Shown here: positions 14,572 to 49,419 of the stretch, piece by piece
How positions within the stretch are numbered: the first letter of the stretch is position 1
How the letters are laid out: each line of letters opens with the position of its first letter
Origin: a virus
Length of the DNA stretch: 64,000 nt
Strand: one strand, 5' to 3'
IMG/VR virus record: IMGVR_UViG_3300047462_000400
Span: 50,870-114,869 of that record
Position numbers and translations under genes: made by a program
Notes under the pieces: generated by a model
Seen by the model: the letters and a program-made list of their open reading frames with translations, nothing else
What the model was told of the DNA's origin: nothing
The model's database searches: none

Positions 14572-16071
14572 TCAGACGAGCGTAATCGTTGCCGGCGTCA
14601 CCGGCACCGCGAGCGCGAGCTGGATGGTCTGCGTGAAGAACCCGCTGAGGAAGGTGGGCGGGGGGCTCATCGTCGTTGGCGGTAGCGGCTGGCCAGGCGG
14701 GGGGATGGCAACGCCCGGATTCACGAACTGCGCGAGCGGGCCGGCGAGCTGGTCGTCGCTCGGCGGCGTCGCCGGCTGCGGGGAGATGAGCTGCGCGGCC
14801 GTCGGGAACTCGAGGAGCTCCGTCGAGATGGTGCCGCGCGTGTTCGACCCGAGGCTGGGGAGCTGCGGTCGGTTTAGGCGGTTGATGCCGGTGAACGGAG
14901 TCTCGAGCGTGACGCCGCGTGGGGAGACGGCGCGCAGCGTGTAGAAGGTCTCGACGAACCCGAACGGCGTTGCGTCGCCGAGCTGCACGATGAACTGGAT
15001 GGTGTCGCCAGCCGACAGAACGCCGGTTTGGTCTTCCGTGGTGGGGACGTTCGCGGAACCGGTCGTGACGATGAAGTCGCCCTCGAGCTGGGGCGAGGTC
15101 GCTTGCTGGCCCGCGAGCGCGAAGTACGACGGCGGGATGTAGACGAGCGCGCGGTCGATGAGCGTCTGGAGAAGATCCGTCACCCGCTGGAACTCGGTAC
15201 GGGTCGGCGTTCCGAGCGTCGTGGTCTGCTCGGCCTCGGCGAGGTCTTCTCCATTGAGCTCGCAGAGGGTGATCTGCCCCACGCTGTTGCCGAACGCGCC
15301 GGTCGAGGCGACGTGGAAGTCGAGGATGGTCGTCACGTCGAGGCTGCCGACTGCGAGCGGGATGGGGATGGGCGCCTTGCCGGCGAGCGGAGCAACGATG
15401 GTGAACGGTCCCGCGCCCGTCGAGTCGAGGTAGGTCAGGCTGACCGTCTGCGCGCCGCTGCCCGGGGGGATGGGCACCGGCTGAATCTGCGGGACGCCGG
15501 CCGTGTCGAGCGGCGAGGTCGAGTAGACCGCGATGATCGTTGCCGGCGCCGGCTTCACGATGGCCGCCCCATCGTCATCGGTCGTGCCGAGGTACGGCGT
15601 CGTGAGCGTGATCTGCCCAGAGGTGACCGTGTCGACCTCGTAGAAGACGCCGACCTGGGCATCGAACTGCACCCGGTTGCCGTGCTCCAGCGATGGGATC
15701 TGCGAGACCTCGGTCTGCACGATGTCCGAACCGTTGACGGTGAGGAATGCTCCAGGCAGCGCCTCGAGCGCGATGAGCTCGTAGGGTGGAACGGGCGTTG
15801 TCGCCGTCGTGGGGTTGCAGGGGAAGAACGGCGGGGCGAGGGGCGCGCCCGCGGCAGGCGTCATGTTGAGCGTGAGCGTCCGGGTCGCCCCGTCTGCGGT
15901 CGGCGCCGTGACGTCGGCCTCCACGGTGAGCCCGAAGAGCTGCCCCAGCACCGGATCGGTCTGCGGGTTCTGGTAGAGCATCACCGCCGCGAGCGCAGCT
16001 GCCGTCTTCGCGGGGTTGAAGGACGTGCCGGCGGCGCTCACCGACCAGGAAAGGACGATCTGGTTGGCCAT
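14572..16071 (-). CDS. Beta-rich, Thr/Pro-rich putative virion protein with two internal repeats
   Basis: Repeats ...G(N/D)xxQF...FY(E/T)xx(T/A)V...(I/V)TL(T/E)TP(Y/F)xG. Confidence 0.8.
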   Translation of the reverse strand: MANQIVLSWSVSAAGTSFNPAKTAAALAAVMLYQNPQTDPVLGQLFGLTVEADVTAPTADGATRTLTLNMTPAAGAPLAPPFFPCNPTTATTPVPPYELIALEALPGAFLTVNGSDIVQTEVSQIPSLEHGNRVQFDAQVGVFYEVDTVTSGQITLTTPYLGTTDDDGAAIVKPAPATIIAVYSTSPLDTAGVPQIQPVPIPPGSGAQTVSLTYLDSTGAGPFTIVAPLAGKAPIPIPLAVGSLDVTTILDFHVASTGAFGNSVGQITLCELNGEDLAEAEQTTTLGTPTRTEFQRVTDLLQTLIDRALVYIPPSYFALAGQQATSPQLEGDFIVTTGSANVPTTEDQTGVLSAGDTIQFIVQLGDATPFGFVETFYTLRAVSPRGVTLETPFTGINRLNRPQLPSLGSNTRGTISTELLEFPTAAQLISPQPATPPSDDQLAGPLAQFVNPGVAIPPPGQPLPPTTMSPPPTFLSGFFTQTIQLALAVPVTPATITLV

Positions 16072-25207: not shown

Positions 25208-25211
<4 letters not shown>

Positions 25212-25621
25212 GCTGATTGCCTCTGCCATTCGACCATCGCGCGAAAGTGGGGGTTAGTGAGACCGTTACGGCGAGTGCGGATGCGGTAGACCGCGTGCGC
25301 TGGCGGCATTCCGAGGTCGACGAGCGCGAGCCCCGCAAGCACGCCGGAACGGTTGCGGCCCTGCCAGCACGTGACGAGCACCCGATGGCCCAACCGCACG
25401 TGGTCAGCGATCTGCCGTGCGGTACGCCGGATGCGCATGCGCGTCAGTTTGTCGGGGGGCGGTCCATCGTCGAGCGGCATCTTGATGACATGGTAGCCGG
25501 GCAGGTCCGGCTGGTACTCCATCGCCGACAGCACGATGACGTCGAACGGCAGGCGCACCCCTTGCGGGGGCGCGCTGCCCTGCGCGAGAAGGCCGTTCGA
25601 GGTTAGGTACGAGTAGCTCAT
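25208..25621 (-). CDS. Dual-specificity/tyrosine phosphatase family protein
   Basis: LDD acid loop and VTCWQGRNRS (CX5R). Confidence 0.88.
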
Positions 25622-33295: not shown

Positions 33296-35296
33296 CTATC
33301 TCCTCTTCTTGGGCGCCTTCTTTCGAGCCGCCGGCTTGCGGGCGGCAGGCTTGTGAGCGGCCGGCTTGCGCTTCGCTGGCTTGCGATGCGTCGTCTTCTT
33401 CGCCGGTGCCTTGCGGGTCTTGTATCGCGTGACCGTCTTGCCCGGTCCGCCGCCTCTGCCAGCAGTCGCCGCCATCGCGACGATCCCGACGAGCGCGACG
33501 GCGCCGAGCGCACCAGCCACGATGGCGCCGGTGCTGATTCCGCCCTTCGCCGTGGGGGCCACGACGATCGGCTGACCTCCAGGAGCTCCAGGGGCTCCAG
33601 GAGCACCCGGTGCGCCCGGTGCTCCGCCTCCCGCTGCTGGCAAAGGCAACGGAGCAGGCGCAGGACCCGGTACAGAGAACGGGAGCGGCGCGGGCGCGGG
33701 CGTGAACGGGGCAGGTGCCGGTGAAGGGGCAGGACCAGGCGCAGGTGCCGGTGAAGGGGCAGGACCAGGCGCAGGTGCCGCGCCCGGTTGCACCGCCCCA
33801 GGACCGTAGTTGCTCTGTCCGTGCGGCGCCCACCACGACGGACGCGGGCTGCACCCGCTCGGCGTGGAGGCCCCCATCACGGGGCGAGCTGAGTTGGCGG
33901 AGCCGGAGCCCCACTTGCCATCCGCCGTGATCCCCAGCGCCGCTTGCGCAGCACCGACGATGTTGACGTTCGCGGGATTGCAGGGATCGACCCCGACGAG
34001 CGCCTGTACGGCCGGCGGGAGTGCACCCCCACCACCCGGAGCGGGAGCCGGTGCGGGCGCCGGTGCACCACCTCCGCCACCGCCCCCCCCTCCCCCAGGA
34101 GCGTTACCGGTGATGATCGCAGTCGGCAGAGTGGTCACCCCACCGGACGTGACCGGACCACCGCAGTTCGTCTGACCGGGCGGTGCCCACCAGCTCGGTC
34201 TGGGAGTGCACGGAGGCGGTGCGCCTGGGACGCGCGCTTGCGCAGCGCTCGCCGTACCGCTGCCCCACTTGCCGTCCGGTTGGAGTCCGAGCGCGGACTG
34301 CACCGCGCAGACGTACTGCGCGTTGCCCGGATCGCAGGGACTGCCGGCGGTCTGGAGCGTGCTGACGGCATCGGACACGGCGTCGCCGACGCCGAACCGC
34401 AGGGTGCCGCCTGGTCTGCCCGGTTGCGAGAACGCTTCCCGGTTGGGGAGCGCCGCTGCGATGGAGGGATGGAGCGGGACCCCAGGAGGAGTGCTTGCCG
34501 CCGCCACCGCTGCGTGGAGCATGGGAGCAATTGTCGGGTGGTTGGCGAGCTCCGGTCGCACCGAGAGCAGCGAGTGCACCTCGGGGGGGAGCATCGCTGC
34601 CGCACGGATTGCGACCTGCGGGTGTAGCGGTAGCACTCCAGGCGCGAACGAAGGGTGAAGCCCTTGCGGCGCCAGCGGCAACACCGCGGGCGCGAACGGG
34701 TGCATGATCGACTGCGGGAGCAGCGGCAGCACCCCGGGCTGGAACGGACGCGCAGGGAACGCGGGCTGCGGGATGAGCGGCGCGACGCCAGGCTGGAAGG
34801 GGGGCGCGGGCTGCATCGGCGCGGTCCCGAACTGCTCGCGACCGAACTGGTCACGCCAGAACTGCCGACCGGCTTGGTCCCGGCCGACTTCCCAGCCGTG
34901 CTGGTCGTGCCAGACCTGCCGGCCCATCTGGTCGCGATGGATGCGCCGCCAGCGCCGTCGACCGAACGGGTCGACGAACGACTCCTGCTGGTCCGGCTGC
35001 CCCCACGGGTACGACGGGTACTGGTAGGCGGAGTCGGTCTGCGGCTGCCCGTACTGGGCCTGTCCGTAGTCCGGCGCGTACCCCGGCGACGGCGCCATGT
35101 ACCCGGACGTGTCCATCGCCGGCCCACTGACCGGAACGTTCAGACTTTCGCCGGGTCGGAGGTCGCGCCAGGTACGGACGCCGGCCACCATCATCGTCGG
35201 CTTCATGGGATTGGCCGTGATGAGCTGGTCGAGCGGGATACCGAACCGCTGCGCGATGATCGCGGGGCTGTCCCCGAACTGCACGTGATAGACCAT
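33296..35296 (-). CDS. LysM-variant, Pro/Gln-rich, twin Cys-containing PG-binding-like repeats, C-terminal TM and basic tail
   Basis: YHVQFGDSP...ANPMKP; QSALGLQPDGKWGSGT and QAALGITADGKWGSGS; GISTGAIV-TM. Confidence 0.88.
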   Translation of the reverse strand: MVYHVQFGDSPAIIAQRFGIPLDQLITANPMKPTMMVAGVRTWRDLRPGESLNVPVSGPAMDTSGYMAPSPGYAPDYGQAQYGQPQTDSAYQYPSYPWGQPDQQESFVDPFGRRRWRRIHRDQMGRQVWHDQHGWEVGRDQAGRQFWRDQFGREQFGTAPMQPAPPFQPGVAPLIPQPAFPARPFQPGVLPLLPQSIMHPFAPAVLPLAPQGLHPSFAPGVLPLHPQVAIRAAAMLPPEVHSLLSVRPELANHPTIAPMLHAAVAAASTPPGVPLHPSIAAALPNREAFSQPGRPGGTLRFGVGDAVSDAVSTLQTAGSPCDPGNAQYVCAVQSALGLQPDGKWGSGTASAAQARVPGAPPPCTPRPSWWAPPGQTNCGGPVTSGGVTTLPTAIITGNAPGGGGGGGGGGAPAPAPAPAPGGGGALPPAVQALVGVDPCNPANVNIVGAAQAALGITADGKWGSGSANSARPVMGASTPSGCSPRPSWWAPHGQSNYGPGAVQPGAAPAPGPAPSPAPAPGPAPSPAPAPFTPAPAPLPFSVPGPAPAPLPLPAAGGGAPGAPGAPGAPGAPGGQPIVVAPTAKGGISTGAIVAGALGAVALVGIVAMAATAGRGGGPGKTVTRYKTRKAPAKKTTHRKPAKRKPAAHKPAARKPAARKKAPKKRR

Positions 35297-35790
35297 TAGA
35301 AGCGTCTCCCCATCGGTGGGTGTACGACGACGGTTCGCCCGTACGGGTTGTAGCCGCCGTATGGCGCCGCCGGCCGATAGGCCGCTGGCATCGACGGCAT
35401 CTGTTGTCGGGGCACCCACTGCCGTCCATTCCATGCGAACGGGTTCGGTGCACCGAACTGCGGGAACACGGGCTGCTGCGGTACAGCCGCCGCCTGCTGC
35501 TGCTGCCACGCGAGCTGCCGCTCGCGCCAGTCATGGCGGAGCTGCCAGCGCGCGCCGTCCCACGAGTACGGACTCGGGGGGCTCGGCGTCTGCGGCACCA
35601 CCGGCGGAGTCGGGACACCCGACGCCGGCACGGAGATGGTCTCGCCGGGCGCGAGAGAGATGAAGGTCTGGATGCCGTTGACCCACGTGGTTGGCTTCTG
35701 CGGGTTCGCCGCCAGCATCTGGGCCATCGTGATCCCGAACCTGGCTGCGATTGTGGCGGGGCTATCCCCGTACTGCACTTGGTAGAGCAT
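35296..35790 (-). CDS. LysM-variant protein with Pro/Gln/Trp-rich tail
   Basis: YQVQYGDSPATIAARFG...AANPQKP. Confidence 0.88.
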   Translation of the reverse strand: MLYQVQYGDSPATIAARFGITMAQMLAANPQKPTTWVNGIQTFISLAPGETISVPASGVPTPPVVPQTPSPPSPYSWDGARWQLRHDWRERQLAWQQQQAAAVPQQPVFPQFGAPNPFAWNGRQWVPRQQMPSMPAAYRPAAPYGGYNPYGRTVVVHPPMGRRF

Positions 35791-38078
35791 CAGCGACTCC
35801 TCTTGCGACGACGACCACCTCTACTGCCTTTGCCTCCACCACCGCCGTGCGTGGCGAAGTAGATGACACCCCCGACAACGACCGCGCCCGCGACGCCGAT
35901 GCCAACTATCGCGCCGGTGCTCAGGCCGTGCTTCGTGGCCGTCGCCGCCGGAGCAGGCGTCGTCGTCGTCACGGGAGCAGGAGTAGGCGCTGGTGTTGGA
36001 GCCGGCGCGAGTGTCGCGCTCGGCGCGGGCGTCGCAGGGACGGGGGCGGGGATGGGCGGAGCTGGCGCGTTGCCGCCCGCCGGGAAAGCGTTCGGGAAGT
36101 CTTGCGCGTAAACGTGCGTCGTGTTCTGGAGCGCGGTCAGCGTGTCCTGATCGAGCACACCGTCAGTGCGCAGCGGCGTCGTCGTGATGCCGGCGGTGAT
36201 CGTGGGGAGCTTGGCGTTGTTGACCCAGATCTGGAAGCACGCGACGGCCGCCTGGAGGTTCACGCCCGGGTCCACCCACGTCGGGCACGAGGTCCCGGTC
36301 GCCGAGGTGATCTGGCTGTTGAACGTCGCGAGGCTGTTCCGGATCCACGTCTGCTGGTCCGGCGTGAGACCCGCGAATGCGTCCGGATCGCCAGGACCAT
36401 CGAGCGCAAACCCGCGGCAACCGCAGCCGCCGAGTGAGATGGATTCACCGAGGAACATCGTCGTCTCCTTGTCGCCTACAATTCCGAACCCGGATGGCCT
36501 GCCCGCCCCGCCCGTCATGGCAGCGAGGTCGATCAGGGTGCTCGTGATGGTGTCGAGCCGACCAGTCGGTGACATGCCATGTGCGAGCTGGAACCGTGCG
36601 ATGGCGCCCGCGGTGTTCGCACCGAAGTCGCCGTCGAGTCGGAGTCGCTCGCCGAGCCGGTTCAGCTGCTGTTGCGCCGCCCAGACTGCGGAACGGTCGT
36701 GCGAGAGATCCTGGATGCCGGTCTCCGCAATCCCACCGATTCCGGACGGCACAATCGGACCCCCGCCACGGTTGGCGTACTGGTCACCGCCGGATGGCCG
36801 CGGACCGAAGTAGAGGTTGCGACGGGTCCACTGCGGGATCGGTCCCGTGCAGTCCGCGCGCGGGGCGCACGGCGGCGTCTGCGGCGTCATGTTCTGCGCG
36901 TACCAGCAGGAGGCCGCACGGAGCCCTTCGTCGGTCGGTCCCTGCACCGGCACGTCGGTCACGAAGTCGTACTGACCCGTCGCTTGCGCCGGCGTGAGCG
37001 GCCGACCCGCAGGCGTGATCGTCGGTCGCCCCGGAAACTGGCCGATGTCCAGCGGGAAGCCCGCGACGTCGCGTCCACCGAACACGTCGCGCGCCGACAC
37101 GGGCACCGGCACCGGCACCGGAAGCACCACGAAGACCGGCGGAGGAGGAGGTGGGGGCGGAGCCGGCGGCAAGAACGCCCCCGGCGGCATCCCCGGGACC
37201 ATCCCAGGCGGGAACATCCCCGGAGGGCCAGGCGGCGCCGGATAGTGGGGATGATGCGGAGGGTGGTGCGGGCGATGGTGCGGGTGACCGGGCGGATACA
37301 CGCCCGGCTGCACCGCGACCGGAGGATGGTGCGGGTGGTGCGGATGACCCGGATGATGAGGGTGGTGAGGATGGTGCGGGTGCTGCCCCGGCTGCACGAC
37401 CACTTCCCGTCCATGGTGGGGATGGTGGGGATGACCTGGATGGTGCGGGTGACCCGGATGCACCGCCTGCCCGTGCGGGTGCTGGGGGTGGTGCGGGTGC
37501 TGCGGATGGCCCGGATGATGAGGGTGGTGAGGATGGTGCGGGTGCTGCCCCGGCTGCACGACCACTTCCCGTCCATGGTGGGGATGGTGGGGATGACCTG
37601 GATGGTGCGGGTGACCCGGATGCACCGCCTGCCCGTGCGGGTGCTGGGGGTGGTGCGGGTGCTGCGGATGGCCCGGATGATGAGGGTGCTGCGGGTGCTG
37701 AGGATGATGCCCCGGCGGCGGGTGATGACCCGGCTGGTGCTGCGGATGATGCTGCGCCTGCGGGTGCTGAGGATGGTGCGCCCCATGGTGCTGCGGATGG
37801 TGCGGGTGGGGCGGGACCTGCCCGTACGGCGTCTGCGGCTGCGTCATCGCCTCTTCCTTCTGCGCGAGCGCGTACCCGTGCACCTGGACACCACCCAGCG
37901 AGATGGTCTCGCCGAGGTCGCCGCCGCGACCTTGCGCAGGACTCAATCCTTCGCGTCCTTGCGCAGGCCCAAACCCGGGATTCGCGGGAGTCGGATAGAA
38001 TCCGAACTGCCGCTTGAATCCGTCTCGGTCCGAGCAGTCCGAGCAACCCGACAGCGTTCCTTCTCGAGTGGCCGTCAC
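35790..38078 (-). CDS. His/Pro-repeat protein with PG_binding_1-like domain and C-terminal TM; probable internal starts at 37847 and 36458
   Basis: QQQLNRLG...DGDFGANTAGAIARFQ; GLSTGAIV-TM-RRRKRSR; SD-like sequences before the internal ATGs. Confidence 0.85.
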   Translation of the reverse strand: MTATREGTLSGCSDCSDRDGFKRQFGFYPTPANPGFGPAQGREGLSPAQGRGGDLGETISLGGVQVHGYALAQKEEAMTQPQTPYGQVPPHPHHPQHHGAHHPQHPQAQHHPQHQPGHHPPPGHHPQHPQHPHHPGHPQHPHHPQHPHGQAVHPGHPHHPGHPHHPHHGREVVVQPGQHPHHPHHPHHPGHPQHPHHPQHPHGQAVHPGHPHHPGHPHHPHHGREVVVQPGQHPHHPHHPHHPGHPHHPHHPPVAVQPGVYPPGHPHHRPHHPPHHPHYPAPPGPPGMFPPGMVPGMPPGAFLPPAPPPPPPPPVFVVLPVPVPVPVSARDVFGGRDVAGFPLDIGQFPGRPTITPAGRPLTPAQATGQYDFVTDVPVQGPTDEGLRAASCWYAQNMTPQTPPCAPRADCTGPIPQWTRRNLYFGPRPSGGDQYANRGGGPIVPSGIGGIAETGIQDLSHDRSAVWAAQQQLNRLGERLRLDGDFGANTAGAIARFQLAHGMSPTGRLDTITSTLIDLAAMTGGAGRPSGFGIVGDKETTMFLGESISLGGCGCRGFALDGPGDPDAFAGLTPDQQTWIRNSLATFNSQITSATGTSCPTWVDPGVNLQAAVACFQIWVNNAKLPTITAGITTTPLRTDGVLDQDTLTALQNTTHVYAQDFPNAFPAGGNAPAPPIPAPVPATPAPSATLAPAPTPAPTPAPVTTTTPAPAATATKHGLSTGAIVGIGVAGAVVVGGVIYFATHGGGGGKGSRGGRRRKRSR
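37350..37685. repeat. 162-bp tandem duplication encoding a 54-aa His-Pro unit
   Basis: cacttcccgt at 37401 and 37563. Confidence 0.85.
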
Positions 38079-38923
38079 GGCACGTCCTCCCCCAGGTTCT
38101 CGTCGAAGACGAGCGATCCTGCGACGACGCCGTACTGCGCGAACGCTGCGAACGACGTGAGGAACCGATCCTCACGGGTGAGCGCGGAGAACTGGTCGGG
38201 CGTCAGACCCGTGGTGGTCGGGTTCGTTGCCGGATCGTTCTGCCGAACGCTTGCAAAGAGCGCGACGTCGCACGGCAAGGGGACCGGGATGTCGAGCACC
38301 CGCTCGCTCTGCGAACTCAGCCAGTGGTAGCGGAGGTCGTGGATGTTCCCGAGGCTCGCGTGGAGCGGCGTCCCCCACGGCTTGCCGGCGTTCGGCGGCG
38401 CGTAGGGCGCAGGCACCTGGTAGAGAATCGACGGCGCCGTGCTGGTCTCGTAGATGAAGCCGTCCGTGTTCGCCGGGTTCCGACGGTCACGGAACGTCTT
38501 CGGGATCAGCATCACGTGCCACGAGATGTCGCCGTCCGGCGGATGCCAGAGCGGCTGCCGGATCTCGCGCCGAAACACCGTCGTTGGTGCCGCTTCTCCG
38601 TTGGGGATGCGGGCGACGATCTCCGCGTACTGCCTAATGCCGACCAGACGCGCGCCGACCTCGCCGGTCGAGAACCCCACCCGCGCGAGCAGCATGAGGT
38701 AGCGCGCGTTGCCGATGGCCGCGCTCGGCGTTTGCGGGACGACGAGGCCCGTGCCGACGTTCGTGTTGTACGGGTCGCTCTTGATGAACCCGAACTCGGG
38801 GTTCGGGCCGGCGGTGACGACCTCGTAGCGACCGGCGCAGAGAGACGTGCGGAGGCCATTGGAAACCCCACTGGGTTCCCGCTGAAGCCTGATCACGTTA
38901 TCCGTGCGTTCGCCTCGTCGCAT
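38075..38923 (-). CDS. Beta-rich putative capsid-associated protein (penton/minor capsid candidate)
   Basis: Directly downstream of two jelly-roll-like genes; beta-strand pattern. Confidence 0.6.
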   Translation of the reverse strand: MRRGERTDNVIRLQREPSGVSNGLRTSLCAGRYEVVTAGPNPEFGFIKSDPYNTNVGTGLVVPQTPSAAIGNARYLMLLARVGFSTGEVGARLVGIRQYAEIVARIPNGEAAPTTVFRREIRQPLWHPPDGDISWHVMLIPKTFRDRRNPANTDGFIYETSTAPSILYQVPAPYAPPNAGKPWGTPLHASLGNIHDLRYHWLSSQSERVLDIPVPLPCDVALFASVRQNDPATNPTTTGLTPDQFSALTREDRFLTSFAAFAQYGVVAGSLVFDENLGEDVP

Positions 38924-38929
38924 CGCGCA

Positions 38930-39538
38930 TCACAATCTCGGTCCGAGCAAAAGGGTGAGGTCAGGGACTTCGAAGCCGAGCTTCTTCAGGCGCTGGCGCG
39001 CATCGTCCTCGCTCATGTCATCGATCGTCTTATCGAGGAACTGCCAGCCGAGGAAGGTCAACGTGACGTCGAACGGCACGCTCACCGGCGTCTGCAAGAG
39101 CACCGCGCTCACCTTGACGTTGCTCTGCTTGTAAAGCGGCCAGCCCGCAGGCCAGGTGACCGCGAAGACGTCCACGAGGTTGCCGAGGTCCGTGAACGTG
39201 TCGTTGATGGCGTACTTCGGGCCGCCAAAGACCTGCATCTGGATGCCGACGCCGGTCTGGCCGCTCTGCTTCAACTGGTTGAAGTAGAGCGACTGGAGGG
39301 GGCTACCCGGAAAGCTGTTCTGCTGAAAGAGGTTGTACGAAACTCGCTCGATCAGCGTGTCCTGCGTCAGGTTGTTGTCGAAGCTCTGCACGACCGGCGG
39401 AGCGTTGACCGTGCTCGACGAGAACTGGAGCGGGATATCGACGATGAACGGCACACGCGGAACCCCCGCGAGCATGGCGAACGCCACGCGCGGCGCGTAG
39501 AGCGCGAGGTTCTTGATGTCGTGGTCCCTCGGAAGCAT
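38930..39538 (-). CDS. Candidate small single-jelly-roll major capsid protein
   Basis: TQDTLIERVSY, DLGNLVDVF, WPLYKQSNVKV, VTLTFLGWQF strand pattern. Confidence 0.6.
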   Translation of the reverse strand: MLPRDHDIKNLALYAPRVAFAMLAGVPRVPFIVDIPLQFSSSTVNAPPVVQSFDNNLTQDTLIERVSYNLFQQNSFPGSPLQSLYFNQLKQSGQTGVGIQMQVFGGPKYAINDTFTDLGNLVDVFAVTWPAGWPLYKQSNVKVSAVLLQTPVSVPFDVTLTFLGWQFLDKTIDDMSEDDARQRLKKLGFEVPDLTLLLGPRL

Positions 39539-39560
39539 TCTCAGTCCTCTCTCAAGCAAG

Positions 39561-39607
39561 AGAGCGAGCGCGCCCCCGTCTGACTACGAGTTATGCGCGC
39601 TCGCTCT
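39561..39607 (-). terminator. 13-bp perfect inverted repeat downstream of the large capsid candidate (mRNA stabiliser/attenuator)
   Basis: AGAGCGAGCGCGC-21 nt-GCGCGCTCGCTCT; no U-tract. Confidence 0.6.
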
Positions 39608-39623
39608 TCTCGACTGCTCCGAA

Positions 39624-40907
39624 TCAGGCCGACATCTGCGGCGACATGATCTGCTGCACCGCAGGCGGCGCAGACGGCGACTGGCAGAATGCCTTCCAGC
39701 CGCCGGGCATCTCCCAGCCCTTGATCTTGATGCCGAGCTTCAGGATGCCGCCCTTGAAGACCTCCCGGCAAACGTTGACCGTCTGCGGTATGGGGACCGG
39801 TGCGGGGTCGAGCGTCTGCTCCAGCATCGCGGTCGCACTCGACAGGGTCGGCCCGCAGTTGATGTTCTGGTCCGGGGTGATGTTCGTGCCCAGCGGCTCG
39901 TTCGTGATGGTGAGCGCCTGGAGCATGTTCGCCTGGTGAACGGCGTCCTGCACGGCGAACAGCATGCCGATGGGGATGCCTCGCTCGAGGAAGCACGGGC
40001 TCTCGACGGGCCGGTACATCTGGCCCTTGCACCCGTACCCCTGCCAGCGGAGACCGCCCCAGGTGACCGGCGCGAGGTCGAAGTCGCGCGTCGGGTGGAA
40101 GATGCCGATGTTGCCGGCGACCGGCGACGTCGTCGAGATCGAGCCCACGCGCCGGAAGTTGACCGGGAGGAAGATCGTCCCGGACCCCTTCGAGCGGTAC
40201 TGCGCGTTCACGCTCGCCACGAACTCGATGACGGCGACCTCGGAGGTGCCCGCCGCCTCGGCGTCCGCGAAGGACCCGAAGTAGGAAACGTCAGCCGCCA
40301 GCTCGTTCAGCACGAGCTCGCGCTGGTTCGTCTTCCACTGGAACTGGTAGGCGTTGATGAAGTTCCAGCCCGCCCGCCACACGTCCACACCCCACACGAA
40401 CACGGCGGGGGAGAAGTTGTCGGAATCGGCCGTGACGGTCGCGCCCATCGCGCCGTTGGTGAGGTCGTTCGTCGTGAAGACGTCCGGCGAAGGGGGGGGA
40501 GCCGTCGTCGTCGTCGGCGCGTTGAACGCATTGCCGATGGTCGAGAAGCTCATCGGCTCGCAGAAGACGTGGACGCCGACGCCGTGAGCGAGGATGTCCG
40601 TCTGGAGGATGCCGTTGATGAGGAACGTGGAGTCGATCGACTGCACGCCGGGGACCGCGGAGCTGCCCGAGAGCAGGTTCACGGAGTCACCGAACGTGGA
40701 GGTCGCCTCCTCGAGCGTAAGGGGGAGGGGGACCGTCCAGACCACCTGCTCGATGACGGGGATGTTCCCGAACGAGCAACGCAGGCACTTCTCGGCCGCC
40801 TTCAGGTCGCCAGGCGCCTGACCGAGACCGAAGGGGATGCGGCGAACCTTCTCGCGGTCCTGGCCGAACCGCGAAGTCTTGCGCCCGATGATGCTTCTTC
40901 CAGCCAT
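39624..40907 (-). CDS. Candidate large major capsid protein (jelly roll with insertions)
   Basis: Strong AGGAGA RBS; DILAHGVGVHVF, YQFQWKTNQREL, PCFLERGIPIGMLF, KLGIKIKGWEM strands; basic N-terminal arm. Confidence 0.65.
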   Translation of the reverse strand: MAGRSIIGRKTSRFGQDREKVRRIPFGLGQAPGDLKAAEKCLRCSFGNIPVIEQVVWTVPLPLTLEEATSTFGDSVNLLSGSSAVPGVQSIDSTFLINGILQTDILAHGVGVHVFCEPMSFSTIGNAFNAPTTTTAPPPSPDVFTTNDLTNGAMGATVTADSDNFSPAVFVWGVDVWRAGWNFINAYQFQWKTNQRELVLNELAADVSYFGSFADAEAAGTSEVAVIEFVASVNAQYRSKGSGTIFLPVNFRRVGSISTTSPVAGNIGIFHPTRDFDLAPVTWGGLRWQGYGCKGQMYRPVESPCFLERGIPIGMLFAVQDAVHQANMLQALTITNEPLGTNITPDQNINCGPTLSSATAMLEQTLDPAPVPIPQTVNVCREVFKGGILKLGIKIKGWEMPGGWKAFCQSPSAPPAVQQIMSPQMSA

Positions 40908-41010
40908 GTTCTTTCTCCTGTTTCGCAGGCCGTTTCTTGGTCAGCCGCCTGCTCCGAATCCGTTCACTGCGTTGCGTGGTGGTTGCGAAAAAAGGTGGTC
41001 CCCGAAGGGA

Positions 41011-43398
41011 TCAGTTGTAGAGGCCCTCTTCCTGCTGATCACCGATGAAGCCCAGGAACTGGTCTCCATCGCCGAGGCAGGCGCAGGCCGCCGTGTCGGC
41101 TCCACGGTGCTGCGGGCCGGGGCCGGGCAGCGGGGTGGGGCCGGGCTGCCAGCCGCCCTGCTGAGCTTCCGGTCGCCACGCCTGGTGCTCCATGCCGGGA
41201 GCCCAGTCCCCGGGGGGAGCGCCACCGCCGCCGCCGTGATGGCGATGGTGATGGGGCGCCACGGGAGGCGACACCAGCGGAGGAGGCGCCACCGCAACGG
41301 GCGGAGCGGGAGGAGCCGGCGGAGGAGGCGGCGGAGGCACCGCGCCCGCGGGCGGAGGGGGAGGAGGCGGCGGGGGTGCCGCCGCGGATGCGTCGGGCGG
41401 AGGCGGAGGAGGCGGCGGCGCACCGGCCGTCGGATCCTGGCTCACGCCGGGCGGGAGGTAGCCGTACTGCCCCTGCATCGCCTGCGCACGTGCGATGTGC
41501 GGATGGAGATGCGCTGCGCACTGGTAGAGCGCCTCCTGGGGGACACCCGGGAACGCCGAGGTCAGCGCTCCGTAGATGTTGTTCGGGTTGGCGATCACGC
41601 TCGCCGCTCCCTGCACGGCCTGCTGGGGCGCGATGAAGCGCGGCAGGACCGACGAGATGGTGTGCGTGATGTCGCGGAACAGGTTGCCGACGCCGGTGAT
41701 CCCAGCAATCCCGGGGGGCTCACCTGGCGTGCTCTTGCCGGTCCCCCAGACGTTCTGGAGTGTGGGGAACATGTCCCCCATGCCAGCCGCCTGGTCGAGC
41801 GCTTGAGCTGCCGTGGGGAACATGCCCGTGTCGCTCGGGCTGCCGAGCGCGAACGGACCGACGTCGGGAGCGCCGACACCGGGCTGCGGATACGGCACGC
41901 TGCCGACACCGGGCTGCGGATACGCCTGCGGGTACGCGGGCGGACCAGACAGCGCGCCGGCTCCGCCGCCGCTCGAGACCGCCGTCTGGGGCGGGGTCTG
42001 CTTCTGGTTGATGTGCGCCGCGATCTCGGCCGGGTAGAGCCGCGCGATGAAGCTCTTCTGGAGCCCCGCGCTGCTCGTGTCCTTCGGGGCGAGGAGCGGC
42101 ATGAAGACGCTCGACCAGAGAGTCGAGAAGAGCTTCACGCTGGAGCCGATGGCCAACCCCTCGAGCGTGCTTCGAACGAACGGTTGCTCGACGAAGACGC
42201 TCGCGACGGCGGGGACCGCCGCCAGGCCGACGTTGGCCGCGATGCGGAGGAGGCCGGGGGCCGCCGCCACGTTGAGCGTGTTGGCGAGCGTGCCCGCCCC
42301 ATCGCTCGTGAACTTGTCCTTGGGCTTGTCGGTGGCCGCCGGATCGTAGGTGGCGAGGAATCGGTCGATTCCGTCCGCCAGCACGAACCCGAGGCCGCCG
42401 GCGATGCAGGCCACCGCCATCTCGGCGACGTACATGCCGCGCCCCTCACGCGCGAACATCCTGCGCGAAGTCGAACGCTTGTAGCGGCGGCGCGGGCGCG
42501 AAGCCTCGGCGACCGTCTGCTCCTCACGCGCACGCTGACGACGCCGACGCGGACGGCGCGGCGCTTCGTACGCAAACGTCTCCCGCGCGCGACGCCGACG
42601 GGGTCTCGTGTGCGAGGTGCCCTTCCGGCGACGGCGCGCCCAACCCTTCTTCGCGGCCTTCGCGTGCGCGGCCTTGTCGTTCTTCCACGCCTCGCTCGCG
42701 CGAGTCCGCCGACGGGGGCGAGAACGCGGACGGCGCGTCGTCTCCTCCATCATGTGACCACCGGTCGGAGCGTGATGACGGCGGCGGCGGCGAGCCGGTC
42801 GACGAGCCTCGGCCGCAGCAGCGCGCGCGACCGGAGCCTCGCGAGCTCCGTGCCTCTTGCGCTTGCGCCAGCCCTTCTTTGCGGCCTCGCTGCGCTCACG
42901 CTTGGTCTCGCCCTTTCGGCGCCTCGGCCGACGACGGGGACGAGATGCTTCCTTGGTGGTGGTGGAGCGACGCCTAGCTGCCATGTCTTCCTCTCGTGCG
43001 ACTACGGCGCGAATGCCGTGGCCGAATGTGATGGTCCTCTTGACCTTGAGCCCCTTGGGGTCGAACTGACGAATCCGGATGTACTGATCGGTGACGTGGA
43101 CCTTGCCGTACTTGTAACCGTGCGACTTGGCCCAAGCCTTCGCCTTGCTGTCCGTCCAGCCGGCGCTCCGATCGAAGAGGAGAGACTGGACGTCCATCGA
43201 AGGACGTCGCGCCTCACCAATCGGGGGAGTGGCAGCAGGACGGGCAGGTGCGGATCGTGGTGCAGACGGAGGTCGTGCGACCGCTCCCGAAGAACGCGGA
43301 GCAACCGCCGAGCGTGTCGGTGCCGGCCAGCGATCCGCGACGCGACGGCCACGTCGAGAAGCGCTGAGTTCGGCGAGGCGGTTGTCGTAGAGCCCCAT
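41011..43398 (-). CDS. Arg-rich core/membrane protein (candidate DNA-condensing capsid-membrane linker)
   Basis: Compact N-module, about 200 aa of Arg-rich repeats, hydrophobic helices, Pro-rich C-terminus. Confidence 0.85.
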   Translation of the reverse strand: MGLYDNRLAELSASRRGRRVADRWPAPTRSAVAPRSSGAVARPPSAPRSAPARPAATPPIGEARRPSMDVQSLLFDRSAGWTDSKAKAWAKSHGYKYGKVHVTDQYIRIRQFDPKGLKVKRTITFGHGIRAVVAREEDMAARRRSTTTKEASRPRRRPRRRKGETKRERSEAAKKGWRKRKRHGAREAPVARAAAAEARRPARRRRRHHAPTGGHMMEETTRRPRSRPRRRTRASEAWKNDKAAHAKAAKKGWARRRRKGTSHTRPRRRRARETFAYEAPRRPRRRRQRAREEQTVAEASRPRRRYKRSTSRRMFAREGRGMYVAEMAVACIAGGLGFVLADGIDRFLATYDPAATDKPKDKFTSDGAGTLANTLNVAAAPGLLRIAANVGLAAVPAVASVFVEQPFVRSTLEGLAIGSSVKLFSTLWSSVFMPLLAPKDTSSAGLQKSFIARLYPAEIAAHINQKQTPPQTAVSSGGGAGALSGPPAYPQAYPQPGVGSVPYPQPGVGAPDVGPFALGSPSDTGMFPTAAQALDQAAGMGDMFPTLQNVWGTGKSTPGEPPGIAGITGVGNLFRDITHTISSVLPRFIAPQQAVQGAASVIANPNNIYGALTSAFPGVPQEALYQCAAHLHPHIARAQAMQGQYGYLPPGVSQDPTAGAPPPPPPPPDASAAAPPPPPPPPPAGAVPPPPPPPAPPAPPVAVAPPPLVSPPVAPHHHRHHGGGGGAPPGDWAPGMEHQAWRPEAQQGGWQPGPTPLPGPGPQHRGADTAACACLGDGDQFLGFIGDQQEEGLYN

Positions 43399-43454
43399 GT
43401 CACGACTGTTTCAACAGGCTATCGAGCCAGTTTTTTCATGAGAAGGTTCTCCAA

Positions 43455-43694
43455 TTCACGAATGCACACGCATGCACGTGCACGTGCACACGATGCACGG
43501 TTGCGCACGCCGCAAACGGTGGTTATGCACGCCGCGGATGCACGGCTAGAAGCCGTTAGCGATCAACTACTTATGCATCGGTGCGCGTCGCGTGCATCTG
43601 CATGTGTGCACACGTGCAGCGCGTGCGTGCGCATGCATGCGCGCGTGCATGTCGAATGCACGATTATGGACTCCGCGTGGACTCCGCGCGGAGT
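43455..43694. repeat. Non-coding TGCA-rich alternating purine/pyrimidine tract ending in GGACTCCGC repeats and a 14-bp palindrome
   Basis: About 16 TGCA in about 210 bp; ACTCCGCGCGGAGT at 43681-43694. Confidence 0.8.
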
Positions 43695-44357
43695 TCAACG
43701 GATGCCGGGGTAGAGCAGATCCGGCGCAGTCGCTGGACCGCTGAGCGCGCCGTCGCCGCCGCCGCTCATCCCTACGAAGTCGCCATGCGCGACTGCACGC
43801 TGATCTTTTCCGGGCTCCACCCACCACTCGCGCGCGTGCGGCGCAACGCGACCAGCCGGGTGATTGGTCGTGCCGTCCATCTTCACCCAGTCGTCGAGCT
43901 CGTCCTGGAACGCCATGAAAACGTGCGTCGGAACGTCGACCGGGTCCTTGTAGCTGCTGCCGATAATCATGGCCGGGATGGCGATCGACATCAGCGCGGC
44001 AGCGAGCGCGATGGCTGCCTCGTCGCAGTCGCCGCCGATGATGCAGAGACCACCCTCGTCGAGGCAGAGCAGCTGGTCGGGCGTCGCCATGAACTCGCCC
44101 ATGAGCGGGTCCGCGGCGTACGGAACCTTCTTCCGGAATGCATCGAGGATGCACTGAGCGATCTGGAGCCGACTGCTCTTCGACGGAGAGAGACCGCAGC
44201 TCGCGATCTGTTGCAGCACCCACGCGCGAAGGCGCGGTGACATGCGCGCTTTCCACGCGCGCGCTGCAACCTCCTCGAGCGACATGAGCGCGCCCTTGCG
44301 GCCCGCCGGATGCGGACGTTGATCGAGCTGCACACCAGTGACGGGCTTATCGATCAT
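43695..44357 (-). CDS. Transglutaminase-like (papain-fold) Cys protease/transferase
   Basis: GDCDE (Cys), THVF (His), MDGT (Asp) triad. Confidence 0.85.
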   Translation of the reverse strand: MIDKPVTGVQLDQRPHPAGRKGALMSLEEVAARAWKARMSPRLRAWVLQQIASCGLSPSKSSRLQIAQCILDAFRKKVPYAADPLMGEFMATPDQLLCLDEGGLCIIGGDCDEAAIALAAALMSIAIPAMIIGSSYKDPVDVPTHVFMAFQDELDDWVKMDGTTNHPAGRVAPHAREWWVEPGKDQRAVAHGDFVGMSGGGDGALSGPATAPDLLYPGIR

Positions 44358-45154
44358 CGTCCCCTCCGCGCTGCGCGCCGCGAGCTCGTTCCTCGTCGTC
44401 GTCCGCGTGGAGCTGGCTTGTGGTGGGTCGCGAGGTAGATGATGCCGCCCACCGTGCCGGCCCCGAGGAGGCCCAGGCCGACCATTGCGCCGGTGCTCAT
44501 CCCCTTGTGCGGCGTTGGAGTCGCTGCGGGCGCAGGCACTGGTGAAGGCGCAGGCGTAGGCGCAGGAGCAGCGAGCGCCGGACATGCAGCCGGAGCGTTG
44601 CTCCCGAGCACGGTCGCCATCGCATCGGCGGTCGCCTTCTCGAAGGTGCCGGTGCCGAGCGGCACGGGCAGTGGATTGTTCGGCACCGCGTTCCACGCGA
44701 CCTTGAAGTCGTGCACGGCGGCGTTCACCTTGCTGCCTGCCTGCTGCACCGACTGGCAGAAGTTCGGGTCCGCGGCGATGGCGGCAGCAGCGGCTTGTGC
44801 AGCACCAAGCACGTCCGCAACTGACTGCGGTCCGGTGAACGTGGTCGCGGGCGCCGGTTGGGGAGCGGGCGCTTGCCCAAGCGCGCCCTTACCGGGCGTC
44901 ACGCCGTCTGCGTACGGGAGCGCCGCGAAGTATTCGGGCGGCAGCTGGTCCATCTCGCCGTTGAACCACTTGTCAGGCAGCCAGAGTCGCTCACCGGGAT
45001 GCAGCGACTGGAACGTGATGAAGCCGTTTGGGAACGTGATCGTCGGCTTGTGCGGGTTCGCGCGGATGAGGTCCACCGCGCACTTCGGGCAACCAGCGTA
45101 ACGGACCGCGATGTTCGCCGGGCTGTCGCCCTCGCGTGCTTCGTAGACCTGCAT
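44354..45154 (-). CDS. LysM-variant protein with C-terminal TM and basic tail
   Basis: GDSP...RANPHKP...TFQSLHPGERLWLP; GMSTGAMV-TM. Confidence 0.88.
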   Translation of the reverse strand: MQVYEAREGDSPANIAVRYAGCPKCAVDLIRANPHKPTITFPNGFITFQSLHPGERLWLPDKWFNGEMDQLPPEYFAALPYADGVTPGKGALGQAPAPQPAPATTFTGPQSVADVLGAAQAAAAAIAADPNFCQSVQQAGSKVNAAVHDFKVAWNAVPNNPLPVPLGTGTFEKATADAMATVLGSNAPAACPALAAPAPTPAPSPVPAPAATPTPHKGMSTGAMVGLGLLGAGTVGGIIYLATHHKPAPRGRRRGTSSRRAARRGR

Positions 45155-46208: not shown

Positions 46209-48248
46209 TCAGCCGCCCATGCCGGGCGGCATCCCCCACGTTCTCCGTTTCGGCTCACCCGCCGCTTCCGAGATTGGGGGGGGCATCTGCGCGGGGGGCT
46301 CCGGGAGCGCCTGCTGTACCGGCGCAGCGGGAGCCGCGGGCGGCTGCGACGCAGCTGGTGCTACTGCCATGGGCGGTCCCACGACGTACCCGGGCGGGGG
46401 CTGCTGGAGTGGGCGACCGTCTGCACCGACCTCGATGTACCCCGCCGGCAATTGCGGTCTCGGTTGCGCGGCAGCGGCCTGCCTCGTCTCCCGTTCCGCC
46501 TGCGCTTTGCGGATCTTGTCGGTCTGCTCGCCGATGAAGTTGAGGAACCGGTCGAGGTTGGCAGCGCCGGTCTCCCAGAGTCGCCCGGACCCGTCGCTCT
46601 TGTTGATGATGACCTTGCCCAGCCCGGTATCGAGGATGCGCACCGGGCTGTCCTCCTCCGGATCGCGCTCCGGTTCTGGAGGGGGAGGAGCGGCTGGCTG
46701 CTGGGGGGGTCGAATCTCGTCCGCGAACTGGACGATCGTCCGGAAGAGGGACATCGACTCACGCATCTCTTCAGCTGCCGACTTCTGGCGCTGGGGCGGC
46801 TGGTACGGGACCGGACCCGGGGGGGCGGTCGGGTCGTTGGCCGGCGGCTGCCCGTAGTAAGAAGGAGGAGGGCGTGGTCCGCCGTACGGTCCTCGGTAGG
46901 GGCCGGCGCCCGGTCGCATAGCCACGCTGCCCCCCTGGACCGCTTGCCGAAGCGATTCTTCGGGCACGAATCCCCATCCGGGCACGAAGACCGTGCCGGG
47001 CGGGGGAGGCGGTTGCTGGACCGGCGCCGGTGCGGGAGGGGGAGCGGGCGCCCCGAACGCTTGCGCGAGCCGTTCGGTCTGGATGAACCCGAAGTTGGGG
47101 ACGTGCGACCAACCGGGAGGCGCCTGCATCTGCGGCGCCGGAGCCGGTTGCGGAGGCGGTGCAGGAGGCGGAGGGGGCGCCGGAGGAGGTACGGCTGCGG
47201 TAGCCGCTGCGACGGCTGCGGCGGCGGTCTGCTGCATCGCGTACTGCGCACGCTGCAAGAAGTCGAACTGCTGCTGCTGCATGAGCTGCATCATCGACCC
47301 GAAGTCCGGCGGTAGGCCCGCCGGTACCGGGCGGCCTTGCTGCGTCGCCGCCGACCAGAGCTCCCACTGCTGGCGCTGCCACGCCATCAGGCCGTTCATG
47401 TCGATGCCGGGAGGAGGCGCAGGCGGGGGCGCGGGCTGCATCACGGCAGGAGCCGGAGCCGCTACCGGTGCGGGAGCGGGCACGGGCGCGGGTGCAGGTT
47501 GCGCGACGGGAGGAGGTTGGGCCGCCATCGGCGGCTGCTGGTAACCCGGGGGCGGGTAACCGCCGGGTGGATAGCCGCCGGGCGGGTAACCGTACGGTGC
47601 TGCCGCGGGCGGGTAGCCAGGCGCCGCAGGAGCGTACCCAGGAGGAGGCTGCTGCGGAGGGTAACCGAACGGGTTGAAAGGGTTCATGGGCGGCTGTCCT
47701 TGCAGTTGCGGCTGGGGCTGGGGCTGCGCTTGCTGCGTGCGCCCGTCCGGCATCGTGATCTTGCCTTTGCCGAGGTACTTCTTGCTGCTCCGGTCGACGA
47801 AGTTGATCGCGTAGTCTGCTTCAGCGTTCGTGCCGTGGAGCTGCCGGAGGCACTCATAGAGCTCGGAACCGTTGCGCGGACCGCTGTTGATGACGTTCTG
47901 CGTGGGCGAACCGGTGATTCGCTTGACGCTGATCTCTATCTCGTTCGGCGCCCAGTACCGCGTGATGTTGCCGTACAGCACGAGCACGTCGTCCACGTTG
48001 AAGTGGACGCCGGTCATGTTCGCGCGCTTCTTGCCGACGATGGTGTCGATGCGCGCGTTCTCGCGGATGCTCTCCGCATCGAGCGCGCCGAGCTCTCGGA
48101 CCTTGGCCTCGTCGATCACGAGCTCGCCGGTGTCCGGGTCCGGCTCTGCACCGACCTCGGCGACGATGTCCGCCTCGTCCTGCTGGATCGGGGTGCTTAC
48201 ACCTTGCTCGGGCTGCTGCTGCTGACGAATTCTTCTGCGTGCCGCCAT
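46209..48248 (-). CDS. 679-aa Pro/Gln/Gly/Tyr low-complexity protein with folded N-terminal domain
   Basis: PPGY repeats, poly-Q/P tracts, short helical islands. Confidence 0.85.
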   Translation of the reverse strand: MAARRRIRQQQQPEQGVSTPIQQDEADIVAEVGAEPDPDTGELVIDEAKVRELGALDAESIRENARIDTIVGKKRANMTGVHFNVDDVLVLYGNITRYWAPNEIEISVKRITGSPTQNVINSGPRNGSELYECLRQLHGTNAEADYAINFVDRSSKKYLGKGKITMPDGRTQQAQPQPQPQLQGQPPMNPFNPFGYPPQQPPPGYAPAAPGYPPAAAPYGYPPGGYPPGGYPPPGYQQPPMAAQPPPVAQPAPAPVPAPAPVAAPAPAVMQPAPPPAPPPGIDMNGLMAWQRQQWELWSAATQQGRPVPAGLPPDFGSMMQLMQQQQFDFLQRAQYAMQQTAAAAVAAATAAVPPPAPPPPPAPPPQPAPAPQMQAPPGWSHVPNFGFIQTERLAQAFGAPAPPPAPAPVQQPPPPPGTVFVPGWGFVPEESLRQAVQGGSVAMRPGAGPYRGPYGGPRPPPSYYGQPPANDPTAPPGPVPYQPPQRQKSAAEEMRESMSLFRTIVQFADEIRPPQQPAAPPPPEPERDPEEDSPVRILDTGLGKVIINKSDGSGRLWETGAANLDRFLNFIGEQTDKIRKAQAERETRQAAAAQPRPQLPAGYIEVGADGRPLQQPPPGYVVGPPMAVAPAASQPPAAPAAPVQQALPEPPAQMPPPISEAAGEPKRRTWGMPPGMGG

Positions 48249-48771: not shown

Positions 48772-49419
48772 TTACAGGGCTCCGTCTTCTGCGAACGAGT
48801 AGTAGCTCGGTCTCTCTACGTCCCCTCCGCAGATGATGTGGTCCATGAGGTCGATGTTCACGATGTCGAACGCCTTCACGAACGCCTTCGTCGTGTCCTT
48901 GTCTGCCTGGCTGGGCTTCGCTTCGACGCCTGACGGGTGGACGTGGAAGAGGATGACGGCGTGCGCACCGTCGATCAGCGCAGCCTGGAGCGTCGGGACC
49001 ATCGGTGCTGCCACGCTCGACGCTTCTCCACGACCGGTCTCCCACGACCCCACGTGAAGCAGATGCAGGTTGAGCGTCACGAGGCCGAAGACCTCGTTCA
49101 CCTCACCGCCGATGAGCTCCTGGATGTACCGGAACGCCTTCTTGGGGTCGTTCAGCGGACCGATACTCTCCGCGAGCGCGTTGCACGCCGCGAACCGTTC
49201 CATGTCCTTCTGGGCCGTGAGGAACGGTCGACACCTTGGCTCTCCGGGCGGATTGAGCGGCATGGCCCCTGGTACCGAGTGCGGGCGGACCTGCTCGGCC
49301 ACCTCTCGTGCACGGATTCCCGCGCCGACCGGCTCGTGGCACCCGCACCCCCCGTTGCCTCGCCGCCGCACGATTGCGTCCGGGTCGTAGACGACCCGAG
49401 CTGTCCGTTGCTGAATCAT
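48772..49419 (-). CDS. RadC-like JAB-domain protein
   Basis: E...HVHPSG...PSQAD...DHII; ATGA coupling. Confidence 0.88.
   Translation of the reverse strand: MIQQRTARVVYDPDAIVRRRGNGGCGCHEPVGAGIRAREVAEQVRPHSVPGAMPLNPPGEPRCRPFLTAQKDMERFAACNALAESIGPLNDPKKAFRYIQELIGGEVNEVFGLVTLNLHLLHVGSWETGRGEASSVAAPMVPTLQAALIDGAHAVILFHVHPSGVEAKPSQADKDTTKAFVKAFDIVNIDLMDHIICGGDVERPSYYSFAEDGAL

Follow-up and report, generated by a model that had tools for sequence, protein, structure and literature searches.

Jelly-roll, membrane-containing viruses of prokaryotes are known as small viruses with genomes of 10-45 kb – those of the Helvetiavirae span about 16-31 kb – and, to our knowledge, tailed phages, which have terminases and an HK97 capsid, account for nearly all bacterial viruses larger than 50 kb. 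In HCIV-1, one of the Helvetiavirae, the large protein VP4 carries two stacked jelly rolls, the small protein VP7 has one barrel and is present in 15 copies per asymmetric unit to 12 of VP4, and the penton protein VP9 consists of a helix and one barrel (PMC6414509). A packaging ATPase of the FtsK/HerA superfamily is common to most Varidnaviria (PMC8328091). Here, we analyze a 64,000-nucleotide stretch of viral DNA (hereafter the window), bases 50870-114869 of the 116,275-bp IMG/VR virus record IMGVR_UViG_3300047462_000400, and a block of genes within it that runs from p266 to p762. We hold, with moderate confidence, that this block is the morphogenetic core of an undescribed family of tailless double-stranded DNA viruses of bacteria, in which p427 would be the major capsid protein and p202 and p282 rarer shell proteins.

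The gene block and its predicted jelly-roll proteins

A reading made from the sequence alone (the sequence-only reading) had picked out four genes in series, with products of 795, 427, 202 and 282 amino acids (aa), as a capsid module; all four open reading frames (ORFs) are present on the minus strand. They belong to a longer block, whose parts are as follows (window coordinates, strand, prediction).

44354-45154, minus: p266, with a LysM-like N-terminus, a C-terminal transmembrane helix (223-243) and a basic tail; first gene of the conserved block
43695-44357, minus: p220, a transglutaminase/papain-like cysteine protease candidate
41011-43398, minus: p795, with a globular N-terminal domain, a protamine-like Arg tract, two transmembrane helices and a Pro-rich tail
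40908-41010, minus: spacer, in which a short hairpin and T run follow the p795 stop and precede the GGAG ribosome-binding site of p427
39624-40907, minus: p427, the major capsid protein candidate, with a basic N-terminal arm, a jelly-roll core and a nested beta domain
39562-39606, minus: GC-rich hairpin, 18 nucleotides (nt) after the p427 stop; intrinsic-terminator-like and conserved
38930-39538, minus: p202, with N-terminal helices and an eight-stranded jelly roll; a candidate for a lower-copy penton-like protein or, on a rival reading, for a small capsid protein
38075-38923, minus: p282, with a disordered N-terminus (about 30 aa) and a jelly-roll/TNF-like beta sandwich; a minor capsid, vertex or spike-base candidate
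35790-38078, minus: p762, with His/Pro-rich repeats, a peptidoglycan-binding domain and a C-terminal transmembrane helix; the block's last gene in close relatives

The GC content at third codon positions of the p427, p202 and p282 genes is 0.87-0.92, as expected for real genes in DNA of 67% GC (the composition of the window); this, the many homologues of p427 and the preserved gene order indicate that they are real genes and not chance ORFs. The order p266-p220-p795-p427-p202-p282-p762 is preserved in 30 IMG/VR loci wherever the fetched DNA extends that far. In eight more distant loci (capsid protein at 25-43% identity) the capsid gene is followed by a gene for about 205-255 aa and then by one for about 270-320 aa, the homology of these downstream proteins being confirmed by phmmer in all but one locus. 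Two variations on this order were seen. An extra 0.7-1.2 kb, probably an inserted gene, lies between p202 and p282 in six close relatives (L009, L012, L015, L018, L020 and L028), and the distant relative L039 has two tandem p202 paralogues before its p282 homologue (L039:7266-7943, 225 aa, phmmer E 5e-28; L039:7973-8611, 212 aa, E 5e-21).

By sequence, p427, p202 and p282 have no match in Pfam, PHROGs or the sequences of the PDB. The suggestion that AlphaFold models compared by Foldseek would reveal jelly rolls was borne out for all three beta-rich proteins, which are confidently predicted to have this fold, and viral capsid proteins are prominent among the best structural matches of the models. 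All structural scores lie under the tool's calibrated level for claiming kinship, and it is the fold class alone that they establish: Foldseek searches of the PDB and BFVD with the p427 and the p202-p282 models returned nothing at E <=1e-3, and the Z-scores of the p427 and p202 models to VP4, VP7 and VP17 are just 4.2-5.3, for models of monomers from which the orientation in a shell is not derivable.

The AlphaFold2 model of p427, built with a 73-sequence alignment (A1), has a pLDDT of 87.7 and a pTM of 0.85, residues 1-20 being disordered. It comprises a disordered basic N-terminal arm (1-30), a core of about 200 aa (about 50-212 and 381-400, the latter its last long strand) and a beta domain of about 170 aa nested between the two core segments (about 213-380). 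The weak list of PDB matches consists mostly of viral jelly-roll capsid proteins (papillomavirus L1, mavirus penton, IBDV VP2), and the nearest neighbours of p427 in a protein language model are all jelly-roll coats, with polyomavirus VP1 (0.90) followed by CRESS, geminivirus and tombusvirus coats. Single-domain matches span about residues 48-400 of p427 yet align just about 110 residues, AFDB proteins of 211-218 aa (probability 0.99-1.0) cover the discontinuous core from about 9-49 to 399-419, and an Atlas viral cluster aligns 186 residues to that same core at a TM-score of 0.61. That short proteins match the discontinuous core suggests that p427 is a jelly-roll core with a beta domain nested inside it. 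The middle domain is present in 73/73 family members and is about as conserved as the core (1.87 compared with 1.9-2.0 bits), which argues for a constant second barrel and not a variable decoration.

Two short motifs stand out in this protein. At the end of the N-terminal arm (residues 25-30) the sequence G27-L-G29 is kept in at least 90% of the 73 members, and could possibly be a processing site for the neighbouring putative Cys protease. A strand of the form h-x-h-x-h-x-G-aromatic, with which the sequence-only reading had both p427 and p202 ending, is indeed present in each, on the last long beta strand (KLGIKIKGW at p427 390-398, VTLTFLGW at p202 158-165), but neither protein ends there, since about 30-37 residues follow. 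Its Gly and aromatic residue are conserved in 71/73 and 53/73 members of the 427-aa family, and its Gly and Trp each in 25/30 members of the 202-aa family.

p202 and p282 were folded together as an artificial fusion (P0271), their genes being in frame and 6 nt apart, with the TGA read as Gly; this was a computational device for folding two proteins, with no claim of read-through, and its alignment (A5) was anchored by 10 natural in-frame neighbours read through the stop codon. The fusion model has a pLDDT of 84.6, with both parts confident. For p202 it predicts N-terminal helices and a single jelly roll, for p282 a sandwich of the jelly-roll/TNF-like type. All three beta-rich proteins lack hydrophobic, signal-peptide-like and transmembrane segments.

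Expression signals and neighbouring genes of the block

The p427 gene has the strong ribosome-binding site that had been claimed for it, GGAG 9 nt before the ATG, and the 3' hairpin likewise stands, with a 12-bp GC-rich stem 18 nt after the stop (-42.4 kcal/mol, z -2.6). Upstream, the spacer after the p795 stop reads tccc-ttcg-ggga then ccaccttttttcgc; caggagaaagaacATG. A hairpin after the capsid gene was found in 25 of the 26 relatives folded, including those at 25-45% identity; these stems are GC-rich with 10-20 uninterrupted pairs, most are followed by a T run, and the stem sequence varies by locus. Conserved in position and shape and not in sequence, this hairpin might be used to recognize the family at the level of RNA. 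With a terminator-like hairpin upstream, its own ribosome-binding site and a conserved terminator after it, p427 appears to be expressed as a unit of its own, which fits the most abundant protein of a virion. The p202 and p282 genes are nearly contiguous, spaced by 1-19 nt in most loci, and the arrangement implies what would be a regulated read-through into p202 and p282.

Contigs that match the block exactly are present in four moss or plant metatranscriptome runs, and in every run p427 accounts for the longest pieces. The only part of window positions 35000-43800 with no contig in these four RNA libraries is a non-coding, TGCA-rich spacer upstream of the block (43441-43807), which fits a non-transcribed control region.

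Four further genes make up the remainder of the block. p795, which had been noted as an Arg-rich membrane protein, is one: about 80 Arg/Lys fall in a protamine-like tract at residues 101-350, hydrophobic segments lie at 321-345 and 377-408, the tail is poly-Pro, and the protein matches no family in Pfam or PHROGs. A gene caller based on codon usage favours an internal start at 43197, giving 728 aa, and the syntenic homologues are 440-1200 aa long. p220 matches Pfam Transglut_core at E 1.3e-3, under the cut-off, and its homologues in relatives are syntenic at 55-70% identity; it is possibly a maturation protease. In six loci (L008, L013, L019, L030, L031 and L032) a longer protein, of about 510-550 aa, has it as its N-terminal part; here it has a short gene to itself, which overlaps that of p266 by 4 nt. 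A syntenic homologue of p266 is present in nearly all relatives. p762 contains Pfam PG_binding_1 (E 3e-12), matches PHROGs endolysin families and has a transmembrane segment at 717-745; partial homologues are syntenic in relatives. The transmembrane proteins in and around the block (p795, p762 and p266) are the sole hints of an internal membrane.

Genome, relatives and the search for packaging genes

The element, put at a minimum of about 60 kb by the sequence-only reading, is represented by a 116-kb record that is itself rated complete and whose ends carry an 87-bp terminal direct repeat (genome 1-87 and 116189-116275). This genome size is backed by relatives of 109-125 kb, of which two carry terminal repeats; the relatives that have such repeats are 79.6, 111.5 and 124.6 kb long, and complete genomes of the family span about 80-125 kb. 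The 87-bp repeat sits in collagen-like GGX repeats and may partly reflect repeat-driven assembly.

The 116-kb genome comes from peat-moss metagenomes, and contigs of the family number in the hundreds in metagenomes of soil, forest and peat moss. At 70-80% identity, p427 has more than 400 metagenomic homologues, on contigs of up to about 160 kb, and an exhaustive search gave 177 clusters at 50% identity. By tblastn, p427 had no match in 50,697 cultured-phage records, and a scan of 185,579 genomes returned just three short contigs of metagenome-assembled genomes (Binatia, Polyangiaceae), so that the family has neither a provirus nor a firm host. Several features nonetheless point to a bacterial host: Shine-Dalgarno sites, start codons that overlap stop codons, intrinsic terminators, and domains of the LysM and peptidoglycan-binding kinds. 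No description of the family was found in full-text literature searches, and a Sphagnum virome paper that possibly covers the source samples does not discuss it (PMC12142844).

The complete relative of 79.6 kb (G006; GC 60%) has about 16 genes in common with the 116-kb genome, and six of these are p266, p220, p795, p427, p202 and p282, with p427 the best conserved (45%). The preserved order, together with these shared genes, makes the block a signature of the family. Among the few other genes shared with G006, and hence part of the family core, are those of a RadC-like JAB protein (window 48772-49419, minus) and a dual-specificity-phosphatase-like protein (window 25208-25621, minus).

Other features of these genomes lie further from the block. 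An IS1595-family transposase (DDE_Tnp_IS1595, E 4e-29) is encoded inside the virus genome at window 6400-7434 (plus). At the boundary of the replication and structural arms are two adjacent paralogues of 554 aa (window 408-2072, plus) and 341 aa (genome 50304-51329; L003:14304-15329), which have in common a C-terminal domain matching phrog_15934, of unknown function. In distant relatives a GroES-like Cpn10 is encoded a few kb downstream of the capsid block (L035:15064-15402, L036:10377-10691 and L037:6658-6972), as is ThyX in one of them (L037:8017-8823).

The packaging and capsid models were applied, singly or in combination, to ten family records, four of which have terminal repeats. The six-frame search of the 116-kb genome gave no match to the Phage_capsid, Phage_portal or TerL_ATPase models, and Terminase_6N, Terminase_6C, Terminase_3 and TerL_nuclease had none in that genome or in further family records (nine for the terminase models). 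FtsK_SpoIIIE (PF01580) was absent from the 116-kb genome and five relatives of 109-125 kb, apart from one 11-bit match in a 693-aa ORF, and Pox_A32 (PF04665) from the 116-kb genome and four relatives; the FtsK/HerA packaging ATPase that had been expected in the flanks was thus not found in six records, nor one of the A32 type in five. A six-frame scan for Walker A motifs left a DinG/XPD-like helicase as the only credible canonical P-loop gene in the 116-kb genome. Two P-loop ORFs of G006 were considered (225 aa, kinase-like; 368 aa, RecA/AAA-like by motif context), but they have no counterpart in the 116-kb genome and are therefore not a family-wide packaging enzyme.

Forty-seven proteins, including every called protein of at least 250 aa, were also scanned with Pfam or PHROGs, and none matched a packaging, portal or tail family; among the large unassigned proteins, PHROGs gave only low-complexity matches to sheath, tube and tape-measure genes. 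The earlier observation that tail, portal and terminase genes are missing therefore holds at the level of sequence, and at that level neither an HK97 nor an enzyme fold was recognized. The assignments that could be made are a primase, two helicases, a PD-(D/E)XK nuclease, a single-stranded DNA-binding protein (SSB), an exonuclease, ParB, ThyX and an S8 protease, and further glycosyltransferases, an integrase, the IS1595 transposase, RadC and collagen-like proteins.

Readings of the block and comparison with known viruses

In the reading that we prefer, p427 would be the major capsid protein, made from its own transcription unit and contributing two barrels per subunit. p202 and p282 would be translated, in coupled fashion, from read-through transcripts as lower-copy shell proteins, with p202 forming the penton and p282 the base of a spike or a penton-associated protein; their place is most likely at the vertices. 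p795 may anchor its protamine-like arm in a membrane and condense or tether DNA. What the data show directly is how the genes are built, conserved and ordered, which class of fold is predicted, that known packaging and tailed-phage genes are missing and that RNA libraries contain exactly matching contigs; that the proteins belong to a virion, and in what numbers, that their barrels stand vertically, that a membrane lies within the shell and that assembly needs no packaging motor are all steps that we infer.

Several points weigh against this reading. The virion role is read from genes, and the nested topology of p427 from alignment ranges and the order of secondary structure in a model. p202 also resembles jelly-roll cement and decoration proteins of tailed phages (Pam1, KHP30/40), and p282 fibre or baseplate domains. 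Several proteins of 340-680 aa, among them those encoded at window 408-2072, 8870-10828, 11516-12625, 14572-16071 and 46209-48248, match no family of known function, and one of them could hide another capsid fold or a motor. Finally, the contigs in the RNA libraries are assemblies that report presence and not level and could contain DNA, so that they cannot rank expression.

The best surviving alternative, although an unlikely one, is the twin scheme of the sequence-only reading, in which p427 (large, with a tower) and p202 (small) would form vertical single-jelly-roll heterodimers in pseudo-hexameric capsomers like those of HCIV-1, HHIV-2, SH1 and P23-77, p282 would be the penton, and the virus an oversized relative of the Helvetiavirae. 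p427 and p202 are indeed both predicted jelly rolls, their genes are adjacent and always occur together, the two families carry the same motif on the last strand, and L039 has its two p202 paralogues; the second beta domain of p427 also parallels the stacked second jelly roll of VP4 (PMC6414509). However, HCIV-1 has more copies of the small protein than of the large (15 against 12, PMC6414509), whereas here p202 is coupled to p282 and a conserved terminator parts its gene from that of p427; these expression signals are no measure of copy number, but they point away from a small protein at least as abundant as the large. Profile comparison by hhalign gave p202 and p427 a probability of 1.4%, on the motif alone (0.1-0.2% for sub-domains), and no relation at more than 1.4% between p202 or p282 and the p427 sub-domains, between the N-terminal part and the middle domain of p427, or between p202 and p282; these values speak neither for nor against paralogy or internal duplication. 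Moreover, structural scores to sphaerolipovirus-type proteins are no better than to PRD1 or cellular jelly rolls, the genome is about 4-7 times larger, and the packaging ATPase typical of most Varidnaviria was not found. The conserved terminator, the missing profile similarity, the absence of the ATPase and the structural scores together disfavour a large and a small major capsid protein on an equal footing.

A further reading, which we judge distinctly improbable, takes the three beta-rich proteins for accessories of the virion (cement or decoration, fibre, receptor-binding or baseplate-like) and supposes that the real shell and packaging proteins are too divergent in sequence to be recognized. 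The six or more proteins of 340-680 aa with no assignment leave room for it, and Atlas labels the structural neighbours Uroviricota, although this label is automatic. The terminase, however, is the most reliably detected gene of tailed phages, and all five Pfam terminase models were null, four of them across complete family genomes and TerL_ATPase in the 116-kb genome. The PHROGs scans of the large unassigned proteins, which disclosed no portal gene either, and a helicase as the sole carrier of a credible canonical P-loop speak against hidden packaging proteins, and p427 is the best-conserved core protein and lies between terminators, which would be unusual for a fibre or decoration protein. 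That the block is instead a non-virion module of secreted or cell-surface beta-sandwich proteins, from a plasmid-like or defective element misclassified as a virus, has very little to commend it: no experimental particle is known, the viral classification is automatic and proteins of the membrane, LysM, peptidoglycan-binding and collagen-like kinds abound nearby, but the three beta-rich proteins have no secretion or membrane signal, the genome has terminal repeats and its relatives span a narrow range of sizes, the replication genes (SSB, exonuclease, primase and ThyX) are of phage type, the scanned proteins include no conjugation family except a small NikA-like protein, and the language-model neighbours of p427 are exclusively viral coats.

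Returning to the preferred reading of a tailless family with p427 as its major capsid protein, there is a substantial chance that its novelty runs deeper. We put forward tentatively, and as something that may well not hold, that the family is a deep lineage, of the rank of a new class or higher, whose nested two-barrel capsid protein predates the tandem double jelly roll or has an origin independent of it, and whose genomes of 80-125 kb are loaded with no ATP-driven packaging motor. In that case a protamine-like protein anchored in a membrane would condense the DNA, and shell and DNA would co-assemble, as they do in polyoma- and papillomaviruses, although at a scale 20 times larger.

What appears to be new here, as far as the predicted models go, is a virus with a jelly-roll capsid that is 4-10 times the size of its analogues in prokaryotes, whose capsid protein has a new topology and for which no packaging motor is known. 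If this is correct, jelly-roll capsids scale to genomes of about 120 kb in bacteria, and the unusual chain topology of p427 bears on the evolution of double-barrel capsid proteins. The lack of a recognizable packaging ATPase raises the testable question of how large genomes enter such shells. p427 also provides a marker gene with which to look for these viruses, for which the hallmark-gene schemes in current use have no place.

Among known groups, the tailed phages (Caudoviricetes) are the most readily set aside: on its predicted gene content the family is not one of them. Portogloboviridae SPV1, an archaeal virus of about 20 kb, differs in gene content, and no sequence similarity to it was found. 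The two barrels per p427 subunit recall the double-jelly-roll proteins (the group of PRD1 P3, STIV, NCLDV and poxvirus D13) or HCIV-1 VP4, but the chain topology differs; because the barrels are predicted to be nested and not tandem, and no ATPase was found, the family is not assignable to the canonical double-jelly-roll Bamfordvirae (e.g. Tectiviridae).

The likeness to the Helvetiavirae (HCIV-1, HHIV-2 and SH1; P23-77) lies in a gene for a larger, two-domain jelly-roll protein that adjoins one for a smaller protein with a single such domain, with the gene of a third jelly-roll protein after them, in a neighbourhood rich in membrane proteins and with no tail genes, and p202, with its helices and one barrel, resembles the HCIV-1 penton protein VP9. 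Unlike the Helvetiavirae, the 116,275-bp genome is far larger and no packaging ATPase was found in it; on these two counts the family is not assignable to their families (Sphaerolipoviridae, Simuloviridae and Matshushitaviridae). Polyomavirus VP1 and papillomavirus L1 are the nearest language-model neighbours of p427 (0.90) and head its weak Foldseek PDB list (E 3e-3), and like them p427 is predicted to have a basic N-terminal arm and a radially elaborated jelly roll. Polyoma- and papillomavirus capsids assemble around DNA condensed by basic proteins, with no packaging motor, and by analogy such an assembly would fit both the missing ATPase and the protamine-like p795. Taken as a whole, the block would work like the capsid module of the tailless, membrane-containing jelly-roll viruses.

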